From: Candidatus Iainarchaeum sp.
Lineage (GTDB): Archaea > Iainarchaeota > Iainarchaeia > Iainarchaeales > Iainarchaeaceae
NCBI GenBank assembly: GCA_043812975.1
Contig: JBDRLP010000024.1
Span: 1 to 14,445, forward strand
Length of the DNA: 14,445 nucleotides
Reading direction: 5' to 3'
A model generated the notes under the pieces. The model was given only the letters and a program-made list of their open reading frames with translations, was not told the DNA's origin and searched no databases. This document shows, in pieces, positions 1,808-14,320 of this stretch (position 1 is the first letter of the stretch; every line of letters begins with the position of its first letter). The position numbers and the translations under genes are program-made.

Positions 1808-2515
1808 ATGCCAAAACTATTTGAAGGTGCAAAAAAGAACTGGAAATTTGTTCTATCCTTTCTAGTTATTTCTCTGGTTTTTTGGTTGATTCAGTATGCT
1901 TTCCAAGTGTACGTTCTTGGGATTACTGATGATGGTCAGGCTTTGGTTAGGGCTTCTGCATTTTCAGGAGCGACATTCATAACTCTTTCTTTGCTTTCAA
2001 GTATAATTTTTAAATTTAAACCAACTTTGGCAAAATACTGGACAGTGCGAAGATTGCTTGGAGTAATGGGTTGGTTGTTTATTGCATTGCATTTCAATTT
2101 TGTAATAGATTTTTATTACATGGGAAATCCTGCAGGATTATTTTTTGATTTAAATCCTTTTGCAAATCTAATTATTTTTGGTTTATTCGGATATTTTATT
2201 CTTTTACTATTGACTTTAACCTCAACTGACTGGGCTGTTGGAAAATTAGGGGCAAAGTGGAAACCCTTGCACAGATTGGTTTATTTTTCTTATTGGGCTA
2301 TAGTTACCCACTTCATGCTGATCAATCCGCTTGCATTGATGAACCTTGCGGGATACTTACTATTGCTCCTCACAGGCCTGACTTTACTGGGCGAACTCTA
2401 TTGGTTCATTAAAATAGCTGGGCAAAAAAACTTCAAAACCAAGGCAACAATCGTGGCAATTATTTTGTTTTTACTTTACCTGATTAGTATTTATTTTGGA
2501 TATCTGGTAAATTGA
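1808..2515 (+). CDS. Ferric-reductase-like transmembrane heme-b protein (MsrQ/YedZ family)
   Basis: Multi-TM protein with RRLLG...LH, LTLTS...WKPLHRLVY...H, the YedZ/MsrQ pattern including three conserved His. No msrP in the window, so no gene symbol is given. Confidence 0.82.
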   Translation: MPKLFEGAKKNWKFVLSFLVISLVFWLIQYAFQVYVLGITDDGQALVRASAFSGATFITLSLLSSIIFKFKPTLAKYWTVRRLLGVMGWLFIALHFNFVIDFYYMGNPAGLFFDLNPFANLIIFGLFGYFILLLLTLTSTDWAVGKLGAKWKPLHRLVYFSYWAIVTHFMLINPLALMNLAGYLLLLLTGLTLLGELYWFIKIAGQKNFKTKATIVAIILFLLYLISIYFGYLVN

Positions 2516-2530
2516 TAATTGACAAAAAAT

Positions 2531-2547
2531 CGATAGATATTTAAATT
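2531..2547 (+). promoter_or_regulatory. BRE/TATA promoter of the leader-leuA-ilvBHC-leuB operon
   Basis: CGATAGATA-TTTAAATT, with the TATA-like element at 2540-2547, 20 nt upstream of ATG 2568. This would put the transcription start at or next to the leader ORF ATG. Confidence 0.6.
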
Positions 2548-2567
2548 TCTTCAGCCTATATTATTTC

Positions 2568-2633
2568 ATGAATTCAAGCAATATAAGTAAAGTGGCATTA
2601 ATTCTGTTACTGGTACTTGTATTGCTAGCTTAA
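2568..2633 (+). CDS. Putative Leu/Val/Ile-rich leader (attenuator) peptide, 21 aa MNSSNISKVALILLLVLVLLA
   Basis: ATG AAT TCA AGC AAT ATA AGT AAA GTG GCA TTA ATT CTG TTA CTG GTA CTT GTA TTG CTA GCT TAA: 7 Leu, 3 Val, 2 Ile. It lies between the TATA box and leuA. Too short for the ORF track. Confidence 0.72.
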   Translation: MNSSNISKVALILLLVLVLLA

Positions 2634-2709
2634 ACACCCTGAAAAATTTTTTCGACTTCTGGGGTGTGATATCAAAAAAGATCAGAATTCGTTAGAAAAA
2701 AGGTTTTAA
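2634..2709 (+). promoter_or_regulatory. Structured leader RNA: hairpin ACACCCT...GGGGTGT enclosing a T6 tract, with alternative pairings reaching the leuA SD
   Basis: 2634-2640 pairs with 2661-2667 (6 Watson-Crick + 1 G.U). T6 lies at 2647-2652. Alternatively TTTTTTC (2647-2653) pairs with GAAAAAA (2695-2701) and TTCTG (2657-2661) with CAGAA (2683-2687). SD-like AAGGT at 2700-2704. Pairings were found by eye. Confidence 0.55.
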
Positions 2710-2711
2710 AA

Positions 2712-4265
2712 ATGACAAGAACAATCAAGATTTTCGACACAACCCTTAGAGACGGGGAACAAAGCCCAGGCGCTACCTTAAATCATAATGAAAAAATTCT
2801 GATAGCTAAACAGCTTGAAAGGCTTAATGTGGATATTGTAGAAGCTGGTTTTCCAATTGCTTCAGAGGATGATTTTAAGGCAGTTAATGAGATTGCACAG
2901 GAAATTTCAAAACCAATAGTGTGCGGATTAGCAAGATGTAAAAAAGAAGATATTGATGCTGTTGCAAAGGCGATTGAGCCTGCAAAAAAATCCAGGATTC
3001 ATGTATTCTTAGCAACTTCCCCAATTCACATGAAATACAAATTGAAAATGGAACCTTCACAAGTAATTAAGGAAGCTGAAAAATGGGTTAAGTATGCTAA
3101 AGAATTCACAGAAGATATTGAGTTTTCTCCGGAAGATGCAGGGAGATCAGAACCAGAATTTTTGTATCAAGTTCTTGAAAAAGCAATTGATGCTGGTGCA
3201 ACAACACTGAACATTCCTGATACTGTTGGTTATACTCAGCCACAGGAATATGGTGCAATGATTAAGGGAATAATTGAAAATGTCCCTAATTATTCTGATT
3301 CAATAACTATCAGTGCACACTGCCATGATGATTTGGGATTAAGTGTTGCAAATTCCCTTTCCGGAATAATGAACGGCGTTACACAAGTTGAAGGAACCAT
3401 CAATGGAATTGGTGAAAGAGCAGGAAACACTTCTCTTGAAGAACTAATCATGAACCTTCATGCGCGAGAAGAAGTTTTTGATGCAACAACTAATATTAAT
3501 CTGAAAGAAATTTACAATACAAGCCAGATGGTTTCAAGTTTCACATCATTGCTTGTGCAATCGAATAAAGCGATTGTTGGAAAAAATGCTTTTGCACATG
3601 AAGCAGGAATTCACCAGCATGGTGTTCTTGCAAATAGAGAAGTTTATGAAATAATGAATCCAGAAACAATTGGTAAAGAAACCGAGTTGGTTATCGGAAA
3701 GCACTCCGGAAAAGCAGGGGTTAAAGATTTTCTTGAAAAAAAAGGATTAAATCTTAATGAACAGGAACTGGAAGACATTACAAAAAAAATTAAGGATCTT
3801 GCGGACAAAAAGAAAACAGTTTATCACGAGGACATCATTGCACTTGCTGCTAATCTAAAAAATAAGTTAACTTCTAATCAGGTTTTTGTTAAACTTGAAG
3901 ACATAAAAATCACAACCGGAAATAAGGTTCAGCCAACAGCAGAAGTAACTCTTATTGTTGATGGTGTTTTGAAAAAAAGTACTGGAATTGGCATTGGTCC
4001 TGTTGATGCATCAGCAAAAGCAATTCGTAATGCTGTTGGGGAAGAATTCAAACTCAAGAATTATATTCTCAAAGCAATTACCGGCGGCACTAATGCCTTA
4101 GCAGATGTTTCAATAACTGTTGAGGATAAAAACCACCATGAATTCAGTGCTCAGGCGGTTAATGAGGATATAATCATGGCTTCGGTGGATGCACTCATAA
4201 AAGGTCTAAATAAAGCCTTTTCGTATAAAAAGAGTTCTAAGCTGTTTGGAAAGAAGGGGTTTTAA
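2712..4265 (+). CDS. leuA: 2-isopropylmalate synthase with C-terminal regulatory domain
   Basis: DTTLRDGEQSPG, IHVFLATSPIH, PDTVG, HCHDDLG, GIGERAGN, HEAGIHQHG, and a C-terminal GxGPVDA allosteric domain. 517 aa. Confidence 0.93.
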   Translation: MTRTIKIFDTTLRDGEQSPGATLNHNEKILIAKQLERLNVDIVEAGFPIASEDDFKAVNEIAQEISKPIVCGLARCKKEDIDAVAKAIEPAKKSRIHVFLATSPIHMKYKLKMEPSQVIKEAEKWVKYAKEFTEDIEFSPEDAGRSEPEFLYQVLEKAIDAGATTLNIPDTVGYTQPQEYGAMIKGIIENVPNYSDSITISAHCHDDLGLSVANSLSGIMNGVTQVEGTINGIGERAGNTSLEELIMNLHAREEVFDATTNINLKEIYNTSQMVSSFTSLLVQSNKAIVGKNAFAHEAGIHQHGVLANREVYEIMNPETIGKETELVIGKHSGKAGVKDFLEKKGLNLNEQELEDITKKIKDLADKKKTVYHEDIIALAANLKNKLTSNQVFVKLEDIKITTGNKVQPTAEVTLIVDGVLKKSTGIGIGPVDASAKAIRNAVGEEFKLKNYILKAITGGTNALADVSITVEDKNHHEFSAQAVNEDIIMASVDALIKGLNKAFSYKKSSKLFGKKGF

Positions 4266-5956
4266 TGAAAGGTTCTTTAGCTGTATTGAAAGCATTGAAA
4301 AGAAACAAAGTAGAGGTAATGTTCGGAATTCCCGGAGGCGTGGTTATTCCGTTTTATGATGAAATTTACAAAGATGATGAATTCAGGCACATTCTTGTGA
4401 GGCATGAACAAGCAGGAGCCCATATGGCAGAGGGTTTTGCAAAGGCTTCAGGAAGAACAGGAACCTGCTTAGGAACCTCAGGACCAGGAGCAACCAATTT
4501 AGTTACTGGAATTGCTGATGCATTCATGGATTCAGTTCCGATAGTTGCTTTTGGAGGGCAAGTAATAACTCCATTAATAGGTAAAGATGCTTTTCAGGAA
4601 GCAGATTTAATGGGAATAACAACCCCAATAACAAAACACAATTTCCAAATTACTGATCCGAATGACATTGACACGATTATTGATAATGCTTATTATATTG
4701 CCAATACAAACAGACCAGGCCCGGTTTACGTTGAATTGCCAAAGGATGTTCAGGTTGAAAATGTTACTAAAAAAAACGAATTGAAATTAAAAGGTTATAA
4801 AATTTTGAAAGGTTTTGATTCAGAAGCCGTGAAGAAAGCAGCAAAAATGTTGCTTGAAGCTGAAAGACCGGTAATGCTTATTGGTGGCGGTGCTTTATCA
4901 GGGAATTGTTCAAAAGAAATCAAAGAAATAGCTGAAACTTGTATGATTCCTGTTGCAAGTACTTCGCAGGGAAAAGGAGTTTTTGATGAAAGGCATCCGC
5001 TTTCATTAGGAATGACTGGAATGCATGGTCAGCCTCCTGCGGTTTATGCAATTCAAAAGTGTGATGTGCTTTTTAACATTGGAACAAGATTTGATGACAG
5101 AGTTACAGGAAACCTTTCCGGTTTTGCTCCTGAAGCAAAAGTAATTAACATTGAAATTGATGCAAGTGAATTTAACAAAAACAGGAAATCTGATATAGGA
5201 ATTCTTGGAAATGCAAAAGAAGTTTTACAGGAAATGGTTGGTATTGTTAGACAAATGCAGTGGAAAAATGAAGTTTGGAAAGATAAATTAAAACAATTAC
5301 AGAAAGAATATGGTGAAGAAATTAATATTGATTCTACTCCAATTGACCCAAGAAAACTCATGTATGAAATTCAACAGGTTTTAACTCCTGATACAATTGT
5401 TACAACAGGAGTCGGAGAACATCAAATGGATGTTGCTCACTTCATAAAGTTTTCAAAGCCAAGAAAGTTCCTTACTTCCGGAGGTTTAGGAACAATGGGT
5501 TTTGGTTTTCCTTCAGCAATAGGGGCCAAGGTTTCTTCTCCTGAAAATGAAGTAATTAATGTTGATGGTGATGGTTCTTTTGCAATGACTTTACAGGAAT
5601 TAGCCACTGCTAAAGTGAACAACATTAAAGTTGTGAATGTGATTATGAACAATGGTTATCTTGGGATGGTAAGAAGCTGGAATGACATGTTTTATGGCGG
5701 AAGAAGAAGCCAGGTGTATTTAGGAAAGATTCCTGATTTTACTAAAGTTGCTGAAGCTTATTCATTGAAAGGAATCCGCGTTGATAAGCCAGGTGAAATT
5801 GGCCCTGCTTTGAAAGAAGCATTGAAGAATGATGAAACAACTGTTGTTGAGGTTCACACAAAATCTGATGCAATTGTACTGCCGATTGTTCCTGCTGGTG
5901 CTGCAAACCACGAAATGATTGGGGACAGTATCCCTAAGGAGTTCTTTGACAAGTGA
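4265..5956 (+). CDS. ilvB: Acetolactate (acetohydroxyacid) synthase large subunit
   Basis: FGIPGG, RHEQAGAHMAEG, TSGPGATN, DAFQE, RFDDRVTG, SGGLGTMG and the TPP motif GDGSF...NNGYLGMV. TAATG overlap with leuA. Confidence 0.95.
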   Translation: MKGSLAVLKALKRNKVEVMFGIPGGVVIPFYDEIYKDDEFRHILVRHEQAGAHMAEGFAKASGRTGTCLGTSGPGATNLVTGIADAFMDSVPIVAFGGQVITPLIGKDAFQEADLMGITTPITKHNFQITDPNDIDTIIDNAYYIANTNRPGPVYVELPKDVQVENVTKKNELKLKGYKILKGFDSEAVKKAAKMLLEAERPVMLIGGGALSGNCSKEIKEIAETCMIPVASTSQGKGVFDERHPLSLGMTGMHGQPPAVYAIQKCDVLFNIGTRFDDRVTGNLSGFAPEAKVINIEIDASEFNKNRKSDIGILGNAKEVLQEMVGIVRQMQWKNEVWKDKLKQLQKEYGEEINIDSTPIDPRKLMYEIQQVLTPDTIVTTGVGEHQMDVAHFIKFSKPRKFLTSGGLGTMGFGFPSAIGAKVSSPENEVINVDGDGSFAMTLQELATAKVNNIKVVNVIMNNGYLGMVRSWNDMFYGGRRSQVYLGKIPDFTKVAEAYSLKGIRVDKPGEIGPALKEALKNDETTVVEVHTKSDAIVLPIVPAGAANHEMIGDSIPKEFFDK

Positions 5957-6429
5957 TTTTTATGGAAAAATTTATTATAAAATTGATTGTTGACAACACA
6001 AAAGGAGTAATGGCCAGAATTGCTACTTTGCTTTCAAGAAAAGGTTACAACATAACATCTATTGCTGTTGGTTCTCATCTTGAGGAAGGAGAAGCAAGTA
6101 TTATGCTTACTATTTGGGGCAATGAAACAGAAGTTGAACTTGCAAAAAATATGCTTGAAAAACTCATTAATGTAATTGATATTCATAAGTATCATGAAAG
6201 TGAAGTGATTGAGAAAGAACATTGTTTGTTGAAAATTAAGAAAACTGAGAGTCCGGTTGCAAAACTGAATAACAAAAATGTTGTTGTTTTAAGAGAGAAT
6301 GAAGGAATTATGGTTCTTGAGTATATTGATCATCCAGATAAGGTTGAAGCGCTTATTACAACTGCTGTAAAAGAATTAGATGTTCTTGATATTTCAAGAT
6401 CAGGAACAAATGCAATGTCAATAAAATGA
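5953..6429 (+). CDS. ilvH: Acetolactate synthase small (regulatory, ACT) subunit
   Basis: ACT motif DNTKGVMARIATLLSRKGYNITSIAVG...LEKLINVI and C-terminal SRSG. GTGA overlap with ilvB (alternative ATG at 5962). Confidence 0.9.
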   Translation: MIFMEKFIIKLIVDNTKGVMARIATLLSRKGYNITSIAVGSHLEEGEASIMLTIWGNETEVELAKNMLEKLINVIDIHKYHESEVIEKEHCLLKIKKTESPVAKLNNKNVVVLRENEGIMVLEYIDHPDKVEALITTAVKELDVLDISRSGTNAMSIK

Positions 6430-6463: not shown

Positions 6464-7450
6464 ATGAAGATATATAGAGAAGAAGATGCGGATTTGAAAA
6501 ATTTAGAAGGAAAAACCATTGCAGTTATTGGTTATGGTGCACAGGGAAAAGCACAGGCACAGTGCATGAAAGATTCTGGATTGAATGTTATTGTTGGATT
6601 AAGAAAAGATAGTTCATCAGTTGAAAAAGCAAAAGAATATGGTTTTGAAGTTTTTATAACCTCTGAGGCAGCTGAGAAAGCAGATATAATTCATTTTTTG
6701 ATTCCTGATGAAAAACAAGCAGAAATTTATACAAAAGATATAGCCCCTCACATGAAAGGAGGGAAAACACTTTCATTTTCACACGGATTCAATATTTGTT
6801 ATAAGTTCATCAAACCTGCTGAAGGAATTGATGTTATAATGGTTGCTCCAAAAAGTCCAGGTACTGAGGAAAGAAAAAGATACTTGGAAGGATTTGGAGT
6901 TCCTGGTTTGATTGCGATAAAACAGGATGCTTCAGGAAACGCAAAACAAACAGCACTTACAATGGCAAAAGCAATTGGACTTACGAGAGCTGGTGTTTTG
7001 GAATGTACTTTTGAACAGGAAACTTATGAGGACTTGTTCGGAGAACAAGCAGTTCTTTGTGGTGGCACGGCCGAGCTGATAAAGGCAGGTTTTGAAACTT
7101 TAGTAGAGAGAGGTTATCCTCCTGAAATGGCTTACTTTGAATGCTTGCACGAGCTGAAACTCATTACTGATTTGATTTATGAGGGTGGTTTGGAACACAT
7201 GTGGAAAGTTGTTTCTAATACTGCTGAGTATGGTGGAAGAACCAGAGGAAAAGCAATTATTGGCCCGCATGTAAAAGAAAGAATGAGTGAACTCCTTGAT
7301 GATATTGAATCAGGAAAATTTGCAAATGAATGGATTACTGAAAGCAAGTCCGGTGGAAACAATTTCAATAAACTAAGAGAAGAACAGGACGCTCATGAAA
7401 TAGAAAAAGTCGGCAAAGAAATCCGTGCGTTGTTCAAGAAGAAAGAGTGA
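6464..7450 (+). CDS. ilvC: Ketol-acid reductoisomerase (short, class I)
   Basis: IAVIGYGAQG, FSHGFNI, MVAPKSPG, EDLFGEQAVLCGG, AYFECLHELKLI, SNTAEYG. SD-like GGGGGTAGGT upstream. Confidence 0.97.
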   Translation: MKIYREEDADLKNLEGKTIAVIGYGAQGKAQAQCMKDSGLNVIVGLRKDSSSVEKAKEYGFEVFITSEAAEKADIIHFLIPDEKQAEIYTKDIAPHMKGGKTLSFSHGFNICYKFIKPAEGIDVIMVAPKSPGTEERKRYLEGFGVPGLIAIKQDASGNAKQTALTMAKAIGLTRAGVLECTFEQETYEDLFGEQAVLCGGTAELIKAGFETLVERGYPPEMAYFECLHELKLITDLIYEGGLEHMWKVVSNTAEYGGRTRGKAIIGPHVKERMSELLDDIESGKFANEWITESKSGGNNFNKLREEQDAHEIEKVGKEIRALFKKKE

Positions 7451-8523
7451 AGCTAATGAACAAAAAAATCGCAGTTTTATCCGGAGATGGTATAGGTCCT
7501 GAAATAACAGAACAGGCAGTACTGGCTCTGAAAAAGATTGCTGAAAAATTTAAACATGAGTTTGAATTTAAGGAAGCCGATATTGGATATGTTGCTTATG
7601 AAAAGCACGGTCATTCACTTCCAAAGGAAACAATAGAAATTTGCAAGAATTCAGATGCTGTTTTGCTAGGGGCAATTGGTGATCCAAGAGCTGAAAAGCT
7701 TCCTCCGCAGGACCAACCAGAAAGAGCTGCATTGCTTCCTCTTAGAAAAATATTTGAATTGTATGCAAACCTTCGCCCAGCAAAAGTATTTCCTGCTCTT
7801 GTTGATGCTTCTCCATTGAAAAAAGAAATTATCGGAGAAGGACTTGACATTATTACTATTCGTGAATTAACCGGCGGAATTTATTTTGGAAAAAAAGATG
7901 TTGCTGAGGATAATTCCTGGAGAAGTGATGAATTAAAATATTCCCGTTTTGAAATTGAAAGAATTGCTAGAAAAGCTTTTGAAATTGCTCGAACAAGACC
8001 AAGAAAAAAAGTTACTTCAATAGATAAGGCAAATGTTTTGTACTCTTCTGTTCTTTGGAGAGAAGTTGTTGAGGAAGTTCATAAGGATTATTCTGATATT
8101 GAATTAGAACATTATTATGTTGATAATGCTGCAATGCAACTGATAAAGAACCCGCATCAATTTGATGTTATTGTTACCTCAAATCTGTTTGGAGATATTC
8201 TTTCTGATGAATCAAGTATGATTACTGGTTCTTTGGGAATGCTTCCAAGTGCTTCATTAGGAGAAGGTTCTTTTGGATTATACGAACCAATTCACGGAAG
8301 TGCTCCAAAGTACACTGGCATGGATGTTGCTAATCCAATTGCAACTATTTTGAGTGCTGCAATGCTTCTCAAGTACTCTTTTGGCCTGGATAAAGAAGCC
8401 AAAGCAATTGAGGATGCGGTTGAAAAAACAATTGAAAAGTACAGAACAAAAGACATTTTTGTTGAAGGCACAACCCTTATTGGTACTAAAGAAATGGGTA
8501 AGAGAATAACTGAAAACATCTAA
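7447..8523 (+). CDS. leuB: 3-isopropylmalate dehydrogenase
   Basis: GDGIGPE, NLRP, RELTGGIYFG, DKANVL, NLFGDILSD, EPIHGSAP. GTGA overlap with ilvC (alternative ATG at 7456). Confidence 0.95.
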   Translation: MKLMNKKIAVLSGDGIGPEITEQAVLALKKIAEKFKHEFEFKEADIGYVAYEKHGHSLPKETIEICKNSDAVLLGAIGDPRAEKLPPQDQPERAALLPLRKIFELYANLRPAKVFPALVDASPLKKEIIGEGLDIITIRELTGGIYFGKKDVAEDNSWRSDELKYSRFEIERIARKAFEIARTRPRKKVTSIDKANVLYSSVLWREVVEEVHKDYSDIELEHYYVDNAAMQLIKNPHQFDVIVTSNLFGDILSDESSMITGSLGMLPSASLGEGSFGLYEPIHGSAPKYTGMDVANPIATILSAAMLLKYSFGLDKEAKAIEDAVEKTIEKYRTKDIFVEGTTLIGTKEMGKRITENI

Positions 8524-8555: not shown

Positions 8556-8774
8556 ATGAAGCCTAGAAAACCCTATAAGGGTCCTGAGAGAAGAGAAGCT
8601 CAGGAACCCAGAAGAAAAAAAGAAGAAACTACTTTTTTTCGAAGAGGGTTTAAAGGAGTAAAAAAATACTTCAAATGGCTTTATGGTGAAGATGATATTC
8701 TCACAGGAACTGACCGTAGAAAAAGAACCCTTCCCAAAAGAGAATCTGATTGGTCAAAACAAAGATCTGAATAG
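8556..8774 (+). CDS. Small Arg/Lys-rich hypothetical protein (72 aa)
   Basis: Has its own TATA box and a downstream terminator-like hairpin, and fills an otherwise empty gap. Contains YKGPERR and TGTDRR. Confidence 0.65.
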   Translation: MKPRKPYKGPERREAQEPRRKKEETTFFRRGFKGVKKYFKWLYGEDDILTGTDRRKRTLPKRESDWSKQRSE

Positions 8775-8810: not shown

Positions 8811-8840
8811 GCCCCTTCTGAGGGGTTTTTCTATTTTTTT
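8811..8840 (+). terminator. Hairpin + T-tract terminator between convergent genes
   Basis: GCCCCT-TCTG-AGGGGT followed by TTTTCTATTTTTTT. Confidence 0.6.
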
Positions 8841-9709
8841 AATTTTTTTTCAACTTCTTTTGAATTTCCATCAAAATTCTCTTCAAGATAAATAATATTT
8901 TTGTAAAATTTCATTTTTGGAATTTCTTCAAATGCTTCCTTGTACTGGTGTTCTAATGTTCCTTTTTCTGAAATGAAATAATCAGCAAAATCCTTTAGTT
9001 TGAATTTCTTTTCATTATTATCTTCAGAATGAATAACACACGTGTCATAGTTTCCTTTTTCTTTCAACCATTTCGGAGGATCCTTATCCCCAATAGAACC
9101 TATTACCAGATTCTTATTTTCCAATAAATCATCAACCAATTCTTTTTTCAGTTTTGTTCCTTTTTTTAATTCAGTTTCTTTTTTTATTTTTATTATTACA
9201 TGTTTTTTTCCTTTACTTATTATTTCAAACCCTGATTCTAGAAAAACATTAAGCATTTTTCTTTCAAGTTCCTTATTAGTTTCATCAATCAAAATAGGGC
9301 AATCGTACTTTTCAAACAATTCAAAGTTTATGCAGAATCCTTCTCTTCCTGTTTTGCTTGTTGGACCATCAACAATAATCAAATCATATTTTTCTCCCAG
9401 ATTTTTTTTCAATGCCTCTATGTCATACCAGTAGTATCCTTTGTACTCTTTTATCGGAGCATAAATGTATCCGACTCCTAAGTATTTTCCCACGTATTTT
9501 GTATCATGTTCTACAGAATCAACTTTGTATAAGTATGAGAGTATTTGTGAACTTTTTCCAGAACCAATTTCAAGTATTTTGCTTCCTGCTGGAAGATTTT
9601 TCTTTACCCAGTCAAAAAAAGTGTAATGCAAAACGCATTTTTTTCGATTATCTTTCTGGGCTTCCTCAATTTCTTTTACTTCTTTAATGTACTTTTCTTC
9701 ATTATTCAT
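8831..9709 (-). CDS. Class I SAM-dependent methyltransferase-like protein with an extra C-terminal region
   Basis: ILEIGSGKSS (motif I), VDSVEHD and YDLIIVDGP in the N-terminal ~175 aa, then a Lys-rich linker and an unassigned domain. Confidence 0.65.
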   Translation of the reverse strand: MNNEEKYIKEVKEIEEAQKDNRKKCVLHYTFFDWVKKNLPAGSKILEIGSGKSSQILSYLYKVDSVEHDTKYVGKYLGVGYIYAPIKEYKGYYWYDIEALKKNLGEKYDLIIVDGPTSKTGREGFCINFELFEKYDCPILIDETNKELERKMLNVFLESGFEIISKGKKHVIIKIKKETELKKGTKLKKELVDDLLENKNLVIGSIGDKDPPKWLKEKGNYDTCVIHSEDNNEKKFKLKDFADYFISEKGTLEHQYKEAFEEIPKMKFYKNIIYLEENFDGNSKEVEKKLKK

Positions 9710-13033: not shown

Positions 13034-14320
13034 TTAGGTTTTTGTTGGATCTGCTACTTTTCCTAAAAATAGTATCATGCCGGAATCTTTGTCAATGATT
13101 GCGAATATGAACGGGTGATCTGCTTTGAATATTGTCGGGTCACCAATGGATGATGTTTTTTCCATAATAACTGCGGTTGCAGCTGCTGCTTCAGTGCCTT
13201 CCTCATTTACTTCCACAAAAGACTGATGAATGACCTCGCTTATTAACAATCTTTCATCAGAAATTCCAAAAAAATCCGCATTAGGAGAAAAAGCATCTAT
13301 CATGCCTATGTTTGGAAGGTTTTCTTTGAGAAAATACTTTTCCTCAAACTTAAATTTAGGAATATAAATCGGGAGTTCTGTTTTTTGCAATGAATTTCTA
13401 TAAGAATTAATTTTTTGAGCATTAAGAGATTCTTCCAGATTTGAAAGTGAATCCTCTGTTGGAAGAAGTATGAGCATTGAAAGTTTGTCTCCTTTGTAAG
13501 GTAATTCTAAAACCTGTGCTAATTCATCTTCAGCATAATCAAAACCATCATCATTCTTAGTTATTCTCATCATATCTGTCATTACAGTTCCATCAGGGGT
13601 TCTGAATTCTTCTTCTCTTGTATCCTTTGGATCAAACTGGATTTGCCAGGTTCCCTTGAAATAAACAGCATTTGTAAGAACAAGTCTTGTATCGGAGGAA
13701 AGTGTGTTCGGTGGTATTAAATCTTTTATTTTGTCATTGGTTTTATCTTCTACCCAGGTGTTTATAGTGTTTGTAGCCTGTGCTGACTGAGCAAAGTCCA
13801 GTTCCCGAGCTTCTGCTCCATAATAAGTTTTTACAGTGTTTACAAAACCCTCTAACATTTGAAGACTATCATCAGCCCAAATAGCATTCGCTGTACTCAT
13901 TTGGTAGGCATCATTCGGAGAATTAATAGAATTGAATAAGTGTGCAAAAGCACTTTGTCTTTCAGAATCATTTGCAGGAAGATTAAGAACCTGTTGCATT
14001 TCAAGGAGTGTGTTTCCTCTTGCACCTTCCTGTGTCATTCCAAGTGCTGAGGAAAGAGACCATGGGGAAATGAAAACATTTTTTCCTTCTTCATTAATCT
14101 CATTGTACATTTCGAATGCAAAATCATTTGTACCCTGTGCAAGTGTTCCAACTGACTGAACAGTGTAACCAGAATCATCCATTTTTGAAAATTCAACGGG
14201 GATTATAGGATTTCCATTATTTGGATCTGGGGTTGTAGGATCACCATTATTTGGATTTGTATTAGGGCATCCAGCTAAAGCAACTCCAATAAAAAGAAGT
14301 GCAAGTATTGCTTTTTTCAT
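13034..14320 (-). CDS. Serpin (serine protease inhibitor) with lipoprotein signal
   Basis: NVFISPWS, INTWVEDKTNDKIKDL, LTNAVYFKGTW, LELPYKG, IPKFK, hinge EEGTEAAAATAV and FKADHPFIFAI. Signal ends ALAGC. TTTTTAT box 23 nt upstream. Confidence 0.96.
   Translation of the reverse strand: MKKAILALLFIGVALAGCPNTNPNNGDPTTPDPNNGNPIIPVEFSKMDDSGYTVQSVGTLAQGTNDFAFEMYNEINEEGKNVFISPWSLSSALGMTQEGARGNTLLEMQQVLNLPANDSERQSAFAHLFNSINSPNDAYQMSTANAIWADDSLQMLEGFVNTVKTYYGAEARELDFAQSAQATNTINTWVEDKTNDKIKDLIPPNTLSSDTRLVLTNAVYFKGTWQIQFDPKDTREEEFRTPDGTVMTDMMRITKNDDGFDYAEDELAQVLELPYKGDKLSMLILLPTEDSLSNLEESLNAQKINSYRNSLQKTELPIYIPKFKFEEKYFLKENLPNIGMIDAFSPNADFFGISDERLLISEVIHQSFVEVNEEGTEAAAATAVIMEKTSSIGDPTIFKADHPFIFAIIDKDSGMILFLGKVADPTKT
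14206..14256. repeat. Two-copy direct repeat (30-nt period) encoding PNNG(D/N)P in the serpin linker
   Basis: TAGGATTTCCATTATTTGGAT (14206-14226) vs TAGGATCACCATTATTTGGAT (14236-14256), 19/21 identical. Confidence 0.75.

Follow-up and report, generated by a model that had tools for sequence, protein, structure and literature searches.

The stretch of DNA analyzed here (the window) is the 14,445-nt contig C24 of a 1.24 Mb archaeal (DPANN, Iainarchaeota) genome that was assembled in 68 contigs, is 94% complete and encodes TFIIB. A search of public sequencing runs for this archaeon listed one DNA run in which its share is small, and no RNA run. The window carries leuA, ilvB, ilvN, ilvC and leuB in this order (Table 1). 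The gene upstream of them encodes a ferric-reductase-type membrane protein and ends 52 nt 5′ of a short upstream open reading frame (uORF), which sits between a TATA-like hexamer and leuA, the first structural gene. For leuA itself we found at best a weak Shine-Dalgarno-like motif, AAGG, in the window and no TATA-like hexamer at leaderless distance before its start. Elsewhere in the genome, the leuA paralogue as well as leuCD and ilvD directly follow their own promoters, without a uORF. Other features of the window lie beyond the operon. Immediately 3′ of leuB, a 72-codon ORF encodes a small, very basic protein; its ATG is preceded at 29 nt by a TATA-like hexamer. At a gene end farther on, a 5-bp G+C hairpin is followed by T5 and more T-runs; this is the shape of a bacterial intrinsic terminator, though the host is archaeal. 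Lastly, the opposite strand holds a full-length serpin gene (Pfam E 1e-123), here in a small-genome archaeon.

Table 1. Coordinates of the genes, the probable leader and its predicted RNA structures in the window
Feature	Positions	Strand	Basis or remark
Ferric-reductase-type membrane protein	1808-2515		Upstream neighbour
TATA-like promoter element	2537-2546 (hexamer TTTAAA 2540-2545)	+	28 nt ahead of uORF ATG
Probable leader uORF, 21 codons + TAA, MNSSNISKVALILLLVLVLLA	2568-2633	+	ORF read, conservation, synonymous-biased substitutions in frame
Putative regulatory codons (codons 9-20): 7 Leu, 3 Val, 1 Ile	2592-2627	+	
Hairpin inside uORF: codons 4-8 pair with Leu/Val codons near 3′ end	2577-2626	+	Predicted fold
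Hairpin A, 7-bp stem 2634-2640 with 2661-2667	2634-2667	+	Starts at first base after stop
Alternative hairpin B: 2653-2662 (loop + 3′ arm of A) with 2682-2691; 13-nt conserved element 2683-2695	2653-2695	+	
leuA, 2-isopropylmalate synthase with LeuA_dimer regulatory domain	2712-4265	+	Pfam HMGL-like, HCS_D2, LeuA_dimer
ilvB, acetolactate synthase large subunit	4265-5956	+	Pfam TPP_enzyme_N/M/C
ilvN, acetolactate synthase small subunit	5953-6429	+	Pfam ACT_AHAS_ss, ALS_ss_C
ilvC, ketol-acid reductoisomerase	6464-7450	+	Pfam KARI_N, KARI_C
leuB, 3-isopropylmalate dehydrogenase	7447-8523	+	Pfam Iso_dh
72-codon ORF	8556-8774	+	
Hairpin with T-runs at gene end	8812-8850 (hairpin plus T-run 8812-8830)		
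Serpin gene	13034-14320	-	

A preliminary description of this DNA had drawn attention to a 21-codon ORF with a tail of Leu, Val and Ile codons and five types of Leu codon. Reading the sequence confirmed this: 11 of the 13 residues encoded by codons 9-21 are Leu, Val or Ile, the 7 Leu codons among these use five of the six available, and the last of them is the second codon ahead of the stop. To place the promoter element in context, we counted the hexamers TTTAAA, TTTATA and TTTAAT ahead of the first ATG of 1,038 long ORFs genome-wide. Their starts peak at 28-30 nt (29, 34, and 40 hits), compared with 2-17 hits at each of the other distances from 6 to 60 nt. This peak implies that many genes of the genome look leaderless, and the uORF shares their spacing. 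The earlier claim that its TATA-to-ATG distance resembles that of leaderless genes thus holds, with the distance falling on the genome-wide peak, and the hexamer stands at the same distance in most same-family relatives. Judging from this spacing, the uORF probably lies at the 5′ end of a leaderless transcript. We also compared it with a background set of 10,352 ATG ORFs of 15-45 codons, taken from all six frames of the 1.24 Mb genome. Only 4 of these have at least 11 Leu, Val or Ile among their last 13 residues and 17 have at least 10; a TATA-like hexamer 25-31 nt upstream was found for one of the 17, namely the leuA uORF. A uORF with such a tail and such a promoter is far beyond chance.

To see whether relatives carry such uORFs, as the preliminary description had suggested checking, we searched 215 genomes of the phylum and found leuA in 48, all of one order (Iainarchaeales-type); the search turned up no leuA in the rest of the 215. 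These genomes and one cut copy gave 49 leuA loci. In the 450 nt before each leuA we took, among ATG ORFs of 15-45 codons, the one with the most Leu, Val and Ile in its last 13 residues. By this rule, uORFs with at least 7 such residues precede leuA at 45 of the 49 loci, with at least 8 at 41 and with at least 10 at 23, counts that overstate the number of separate events because the relatives are not independent. The same rule gave 0 of 24 for trpE in the same order and 1 of 10 for the leuA paralogue. When applied to the 450 nt before 853 long ORFs of the window's own genome, it reached at least 7 in 6.1%, at least 8 in 2.1%, and at least 10 in 0.1%. The four loci missed by the rule proved to be variant forms. 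At one (L019) the uORF ends in six Leu codons and scores 6. At a second (L116, genome G097), a sequence homologous to the uORF of a sister genome has ACG in place of ATG; the ACG could be a sequencing error, a non-AUG start or the mark of a dead leader. The third (L119) has a Leu-rich, 67-codon frame with an ambiguous start. At the fourth (L016), leuA is internal to an operon whose head lies 1.3 kb upstream, and there a 32-codon uORF ends in a Leu-rich stretch, with a hairpin at the stop codon.

The uORFs are homologous within the window's own family and within three other families. In the remaining families they could not be aligned, yet they still close with five to eight Leu codons in a row. 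The N-terminal parts of the uORFs vary freely, and the Leu/Val-rich end persists with a coding pattern of substitutions (see below), which agrees with what the preliminary description had proposed to look for: conserved short ORFs rich in these residues and otherwise variable in sequence. A TATA-like hexamer lies 25-31 nt upstream of 25 of the 45 uORFs. Despite differing upstream neighbours, the position is always before leuA, with 78-259 nt between the uORF stop and leuA across loci.

If the tail gauges amino acids, its composition should follow the genes behind it. We read the gene content behind leuA for 27 loci using Pfam and tblastn. Where ilvB comes after leuA (14 loci, five families), Val accounts for 34 of 140 tail residues, against 2 of 70 at loci without ilv genes (7 loci, three families; leuA lone, with ilvE, or with leuCDB only). 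The same trend can be followed inside families. Of the second family, two genomes whose tails are Leu-only carry a short, lone leuA and one whose tail combines Leu and Val carries leuA-ilvBNC-ilvD-leuCD; in the third, pure Leu tails precede a lone leuA and the two Val-bearing tails precede leuA-leuBCD-ilvBNC. Since kin are not independent, these comparisons amount to about four separate contrasts for Val versus ilvB. That Val content tracks ilvB in the operon is predicted by an amino-acid gauge and not by the rival explanations weighed below, and this link is the strongest support for the leader-peptide reading. On the sequence comparisons made here, the uORF is likely to be a ribosome-mediated, Leu- and Val-sensing leader peptide for the leuA-ilvBNC-leuB operon.

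A side observation concerns the leuA proteins themselves. At L143, L144, L150, L151, L153, L154, and L157, leuA is short (381-404 residues where the ORF was read) and does not include the LeuA_dimer feedback domain; its absence was assessed by Pfam for L143, L144, L150, and L151 and, for L153, L154, and L157, from a tblastn match ending near residue 350-385. The relatives with a short leuA are those with pure Leu leaders, as if the leader had replaced feedback inhibition.

We next consider the RNA that such a leader would form. The 153-nt stretch that runs from the uORF start codon to leuA has a more stable predicted fold than any of 200 shuffled sequences (z = -3.9). Part of this structure is the hairpin inside the uORF, in which the 5′ part of the reading frame would pair with the regulatory codons. 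Folded alone, the uORF of the window reaches -22.4 kcal/mol (z = -4.9); z falls below -2 in 10 of 22 sequences, and the intra-uORF pairing is predicted in most same-family relatives. Hairpin A follows directly on the stop codon and holds a T6 run (2647-2652) in its loop. Across 22 homologous sequences, 146 of 154 stem cells of hairpin A are paired, a count that leans towards structure because the hairpins were cut by a pairing-seeking rule, and both-sided changes occur at 4 of the 7 stem positions. RNAalifold returned only 3 pairs on the MAFFT leader alignments because these misplace the 3′ arm of A. Hairpins at this place recur among the relatives: folds put the first paired base within 3 nt of the stop at 38 of 45 loci, and a hairpin of -8 kcal/mol or lower starts at the stop at 32 of 45 loci. 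In the window's own genome, such a hairpin starts at only 38 of 500 gene ends and, among ends of random small ORFs, at 51 of 500. In other families, unrelated stems occupy the same place by the stop.

Hairpin B uses the loop and 3′ arm of A and thus excludes it. B is preferred outright in 5 of 14 sequences, and it is favoured in most of the 14 when the 9 nt that follow the stop are masked. Its sequence is conserved and shows no compensatory changes, with one internal mismatch in the window. The 3′ element of B persists even where its 5′ partner is gone (L014 and the second family), and its conservation may therefore have a different cause. Neither A nor B is followed by a T-run in the window, where the sole T6 is the one in the loop of A. 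A scan of 2300-2900 with bacterial-type consensus sequences found no terminator-like site, and promoter-like matches were near expectation. For the same interval, an Rfam cmscan (E up to 10) returned four matches, each weak and to an unrelated family, and none to a leader family (Leu_leader and the like) or a T-box.

These features can be assembled into a model. Transcription would start at or next to the uORF ATG, to judge from the leaderless spacing, and a ribosome trailing the polymerase closely would gauge charged tRNA-Leu and tRNA-Val. When Leu and Val are plentiful, the ribosome would reach the stop and cover the 7 bases that make up the 5′ arm of A. With A blocked, its 3′ part would pair with 2682-2691 to give B, and the operon would be turned down. 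When Leu or Val is scarce, the ribosome would halt at one of its ten Leu and Val codons, each far enough upstream for A to stay free; A would then form first and exclude B, and the operon would be read (A = ON). Bacterial ribosome footprints are assumed here, by which a stall at any Leu/Val codon leaves A free and a ribosome at the stop covers its 5′ arm. Since a stalled ribosome frees A and one at the stop covers it, A should mark scarcity and the ON state. A halt at any regulatory codon would then send the same signal, which makes sense of the presence of many such codons. As wiring, the choice between A and B is a tentative proposal that we hold at slightly less than evenly poised. Premature termination is an evenly balanced candidate for the OFF output; RNA decay, processing or a protein site would be others. 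With no U-run after the hairpins in the window, each of these output steps is conjectural. In this genome, T-runs of at least 5 lie within 60 nt of 45% of gene ends versus 29% of random sites. Archaeal polymerases are known to terminate at oligo-T without a hairpin.

The same sensor could also be wired differently, with the stop hairpin and a T-run acting as a terminator or pause. A ribosome halted at the final Leu codons would block this signal sterically, and starvation would then give read-through without a second hairpin. T-runs in relatives speak for this arrangement. In one family (12 loci), a run of at least 4 T follows the stop hairpin within 15 nt in 10 of 12; most of a second family has T4-T5 after the stop hairpin. 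The window's own genome contains a hairpin with a T-run at the gene end at 8812-8830. Moreover, the Leu codons reach close to the hairpin: at 43 of 45 loci only 1 or 2 codons separate the final Leu/Val codon position from the stop, counted from the stop backwards. However, footprints suggest that a ribosome stalled with its A site on a hungry codon two before the stop would reach only 1-3 bases into the stem, and stalls at upstream Leu codons would leave the hairpin free, which is the wrong sign. The window also has no T-run after its hairpin. We consider this wiring unlikely, while noting that in another family the stop hairpin is followed by T5-T9 and itself resembles a terminator, which suggests termination there and fits A = ON poorly.

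A different kind of explanation is that the conserved element is a structured non-coding RNA or a protein-binding site, riboswitch-like or an operator, in which the ORF is incidental. Both the strong predicted structure (z = -3.9 for the 153 nt, z = -4.9 for the uORF alone) and the 13-nt element, conserved without a coding or pairing reason, would suit it. The pattern of substitutions argues otherwise. For the last nine codons of the uORF, we scored differing codon pairs as synonymous or not in each frame. In the window's own family (12 sequences), the synonymous share is 58% in frame versus 8% and 8% in the other frames; in the second family (8 sequences), it is 53% versus 8% and 1%. Departures from the consensus in these two families number 8 and 0 at the second codon position, 23 and 23 at the first, and 39 and 22 at the third; the second position is T in Leu and Val codons and is nearly invariant. 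Because the synonymous bias appears in the uORF frame only, it points to selection on codons and not merely on RNA pairing; this pattern and the promoter spacing both favour translation of the ORF. Furthermore, non-homologous leaders elsewhere retain an ATG-initiated ORF whose end is rich in Leu, the share of Val varies with the genes of the operon, and Rfam families gave no match. An incidental ORF is thus very improbable.

We likewise weighed the reading that the uORF product is a small hydrophobic peptide with an independent role, either a membrane peptide or the remnant of a signal peptide, which the preliminary description had named as a way in which its proposal could fail. A polar N-terminus followed by 13 hydrophobic residues does recall a signal peptide core. 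Yet a hydrophobic run of this length could not span a membrane, and the composition of the tails does not agree with such a segment. In the last 10 residues of the 45 uORFs (450 residues), we counted 278 Leu, 71 Val, 44 Ala, 17 Gly, 7 Ile, 1 Met, and 0 Phe, which puts Leu at 62%, Val at 16%, and Ile at 1.6%. For comparison, in 1,401 ten-residue hydrophobic stretches of the window's own proteome, Leu, Val, Ile, Phe, and Met contribute 31, 18, 28, 17, and 5% of these five. Our selection rule counts Leu, Val and Ile, and so biases composition to these three and not between them; Phe is allowed. The absence of Phe from the tails could in part be due to this rule, whereas the scarcity of Ile is no artefact of it because Ile is counted like Leu and Val. 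With Phe absent and Ile rare relative to the proteome stretches, the tail is not a generic membrane or signal segment. Free N-terminal variation, a constant place before leuA and a composition that follows the operon add to this, and we regard an independent peptide as highly improbable. The same counts refine what the leader may sense. Sensing of Leu, Val and Ile had been proposed: for Leu and Val, tail composition and the match to the operon support it, but Ile sensing, with 7 of 450 tail residues, is not supported.

Lastly, the uORF might merely aid ribosome loading or reinitiation on leuA as a constitutive enhancer without sensing, a role proposed for bacterial leader genes in a passage of PMC4833913 and compatible with the weak leuA Shine-Dalgarno motif (AAGG at best), but the 78-259 nt between uORF stop and leuA count against it and the Leu/Val-specific codons and operon link would be left unexplained, which makes it just as improbable as the independent peptide.

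Having returned to the Leu- and Val-sensing leader as the preferred reading, we asked about other amino acids in the same genome. A scan of 404 candidate leaderless uORFs of the window's own genome for richness in the cognate amino acid gave nothing convincing for Trp, His, Phe, Thr, or Arg. Its best other Leu and Val candidates were rejected, as they lie inside longer reading frames. For the his operon, the IGPD gene was not found in this genome (94% complete). The scan of other operons that the preliminary description had called for thus yielded no cognate-rich uORF, although the trp operon has a conserved uORF with one Trp codon. In this region, a tRNA-Trp gene (anticodon CCA, interrupted by an intron in some relatives) lies before trpE. 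The uORF, 9-17 codons in length and leaderless in appearance, lies 100-390 nt before the tRNA gene; its single Trp codon is invariant, and it was found in 23 of 26 relatives with enough upstream DNA (loci L162-L188) and in the window's own genome. Some relatives have a stretch with three Trp codons in five upstream of trpE. In the own genome, contig C40 ends within the trp upstream region, and C52 (bases 1-560 on the minus strand, which overlap C40 1-60) supplied the rest. The starts of C52 and C40 share about 150 nt (the region downstream of tRNA-Trp and the trpE start), so the two contigs can probably be joined. We consider the uORF upstream of trpE a candidate Trp leader with a co-transcribed tRNA-Trp.

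Taken together, we lean towards a broader picture in which this DPANN order would practise true ribosome-mediated attenuation. A leaderless leader peptide would have been retuned repeatedly to its operon (Leu, or Leu and Val) and joined to a non-bacterial output, for instance oligo-U or FttA/aCPSF1-dependent termination gated by A. With the Trp uORF and tRNA-Trp, this would make a general form of amino-acid control that arose apart from the bacterial systems. Leader-peptide attenuation is a textbook case of coupled transcription and translation. If the picture is true, use of the ribosome to gauge amino acids would extend to a second domain of life, and would there be combined with a TATA promoter, leaderless mRNA and a different mode of transcription termination. 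The leader is a short, defined element of about 130 nt, and its retuned tails are a natural experiment that argues for function. The finding would also bear on the biosynthetic autonomy of small-genome archaea and the regulation they keep.

Beyond the lineage, leuA is most similar to genes of bacteria (Clostridia, Chloroflexota, Aquificota), at about 50% identity, which hints at an old transfer. We found no homologous leader at the nearest bacterial leuA genes (78 bacterial among 80 loci, the other 2 being archaeal relatives). An ORF with a run of at least 3 Leu is present at 10 of the 80 loci, 1 of the 10 being an archaeal relative, and three bacterial ORFs among these 10 resemble leaders of their own. 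In the literature searched, we found no published leader-peptide attenuation by amino acids in archaea; there it is described for bacteria only. The terms "attenuat" and "leader peptide" are absent from a review of archaeal transcription-translation coupling (PMC8116511). In the portion covered of a 2026 termination review (PMC13675443), uORFs are mentioned for bacteria only, and the covered portion of a Haloferax ribosome profiling study (PMC7261190) reports uORFs without such a role.

The leuA leader looks like the logic of the bacterial leader-peptide attenuators in a new domain and lineage. The attenuator layout that had been claimed for it is present, with the uORF between promoter and leuA and cognate codons for Leu and Val; a hairpin also lies at the stop. 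In enterobacteria, the attenuator leaders of the leu, ilvBN, and ilvGMEDA operons are leuL, ivbL, and ilvL, respectively. Like these, the leader described here is a short ORF between the promoter and the first gene that is rich in codons for the operon products, with predicted hairpins beside its stop and predicted alternative pairings, the choice between which would depend on ribosome position. Unlike these, it belongs to archaeal machinery, with a TATA promoter and a probably leaderless start instead of a Shine-Dalgarno site. It gave no sequence or Rfam match to them. In the window, leuA is not preceded by a terminator made of a hairpin and a U-run, and the regulatory codons would pair with the 5′ part of their own ORF and not with a downstream segment.

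Closer in some respects are leaders that form without a ribosome-binding site. A leaderless form of leader peptide in Corynebacterium was reportedly described by Morbach in 2000. Actinobacterial leaders are known for Corynebacterium glutamicum ilvBNC and for actinobacterial leuA, in the parts drawn on of PMC11857589 and PMC1262725. They too serve branched-chain amino-acid operons and form a leader peptide without a ribosome-binding site; they differ in working with a bacterial polymerase and a terminator and are not homologous, and in the window leuA comes first and leu and ilv genes are joined. Leaderless leader peptides appear as well in Deinococcus deserti, where, in the portion of PMC4007540 relied on, bacterial leaders were predicted from mapped start sites, in contrast to the start placed here by TATA spacing. 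Lastly, the ilv-leu operon of Staphylococcus aureus has a leucine-rich attenuator peptide, according to a portion of PMC5794164. It resembles the leader described here in being Leu-rich and in standing before a joint ilv-leu operon, and differs in being bacterial, in working beside CodY and in not being homologous.
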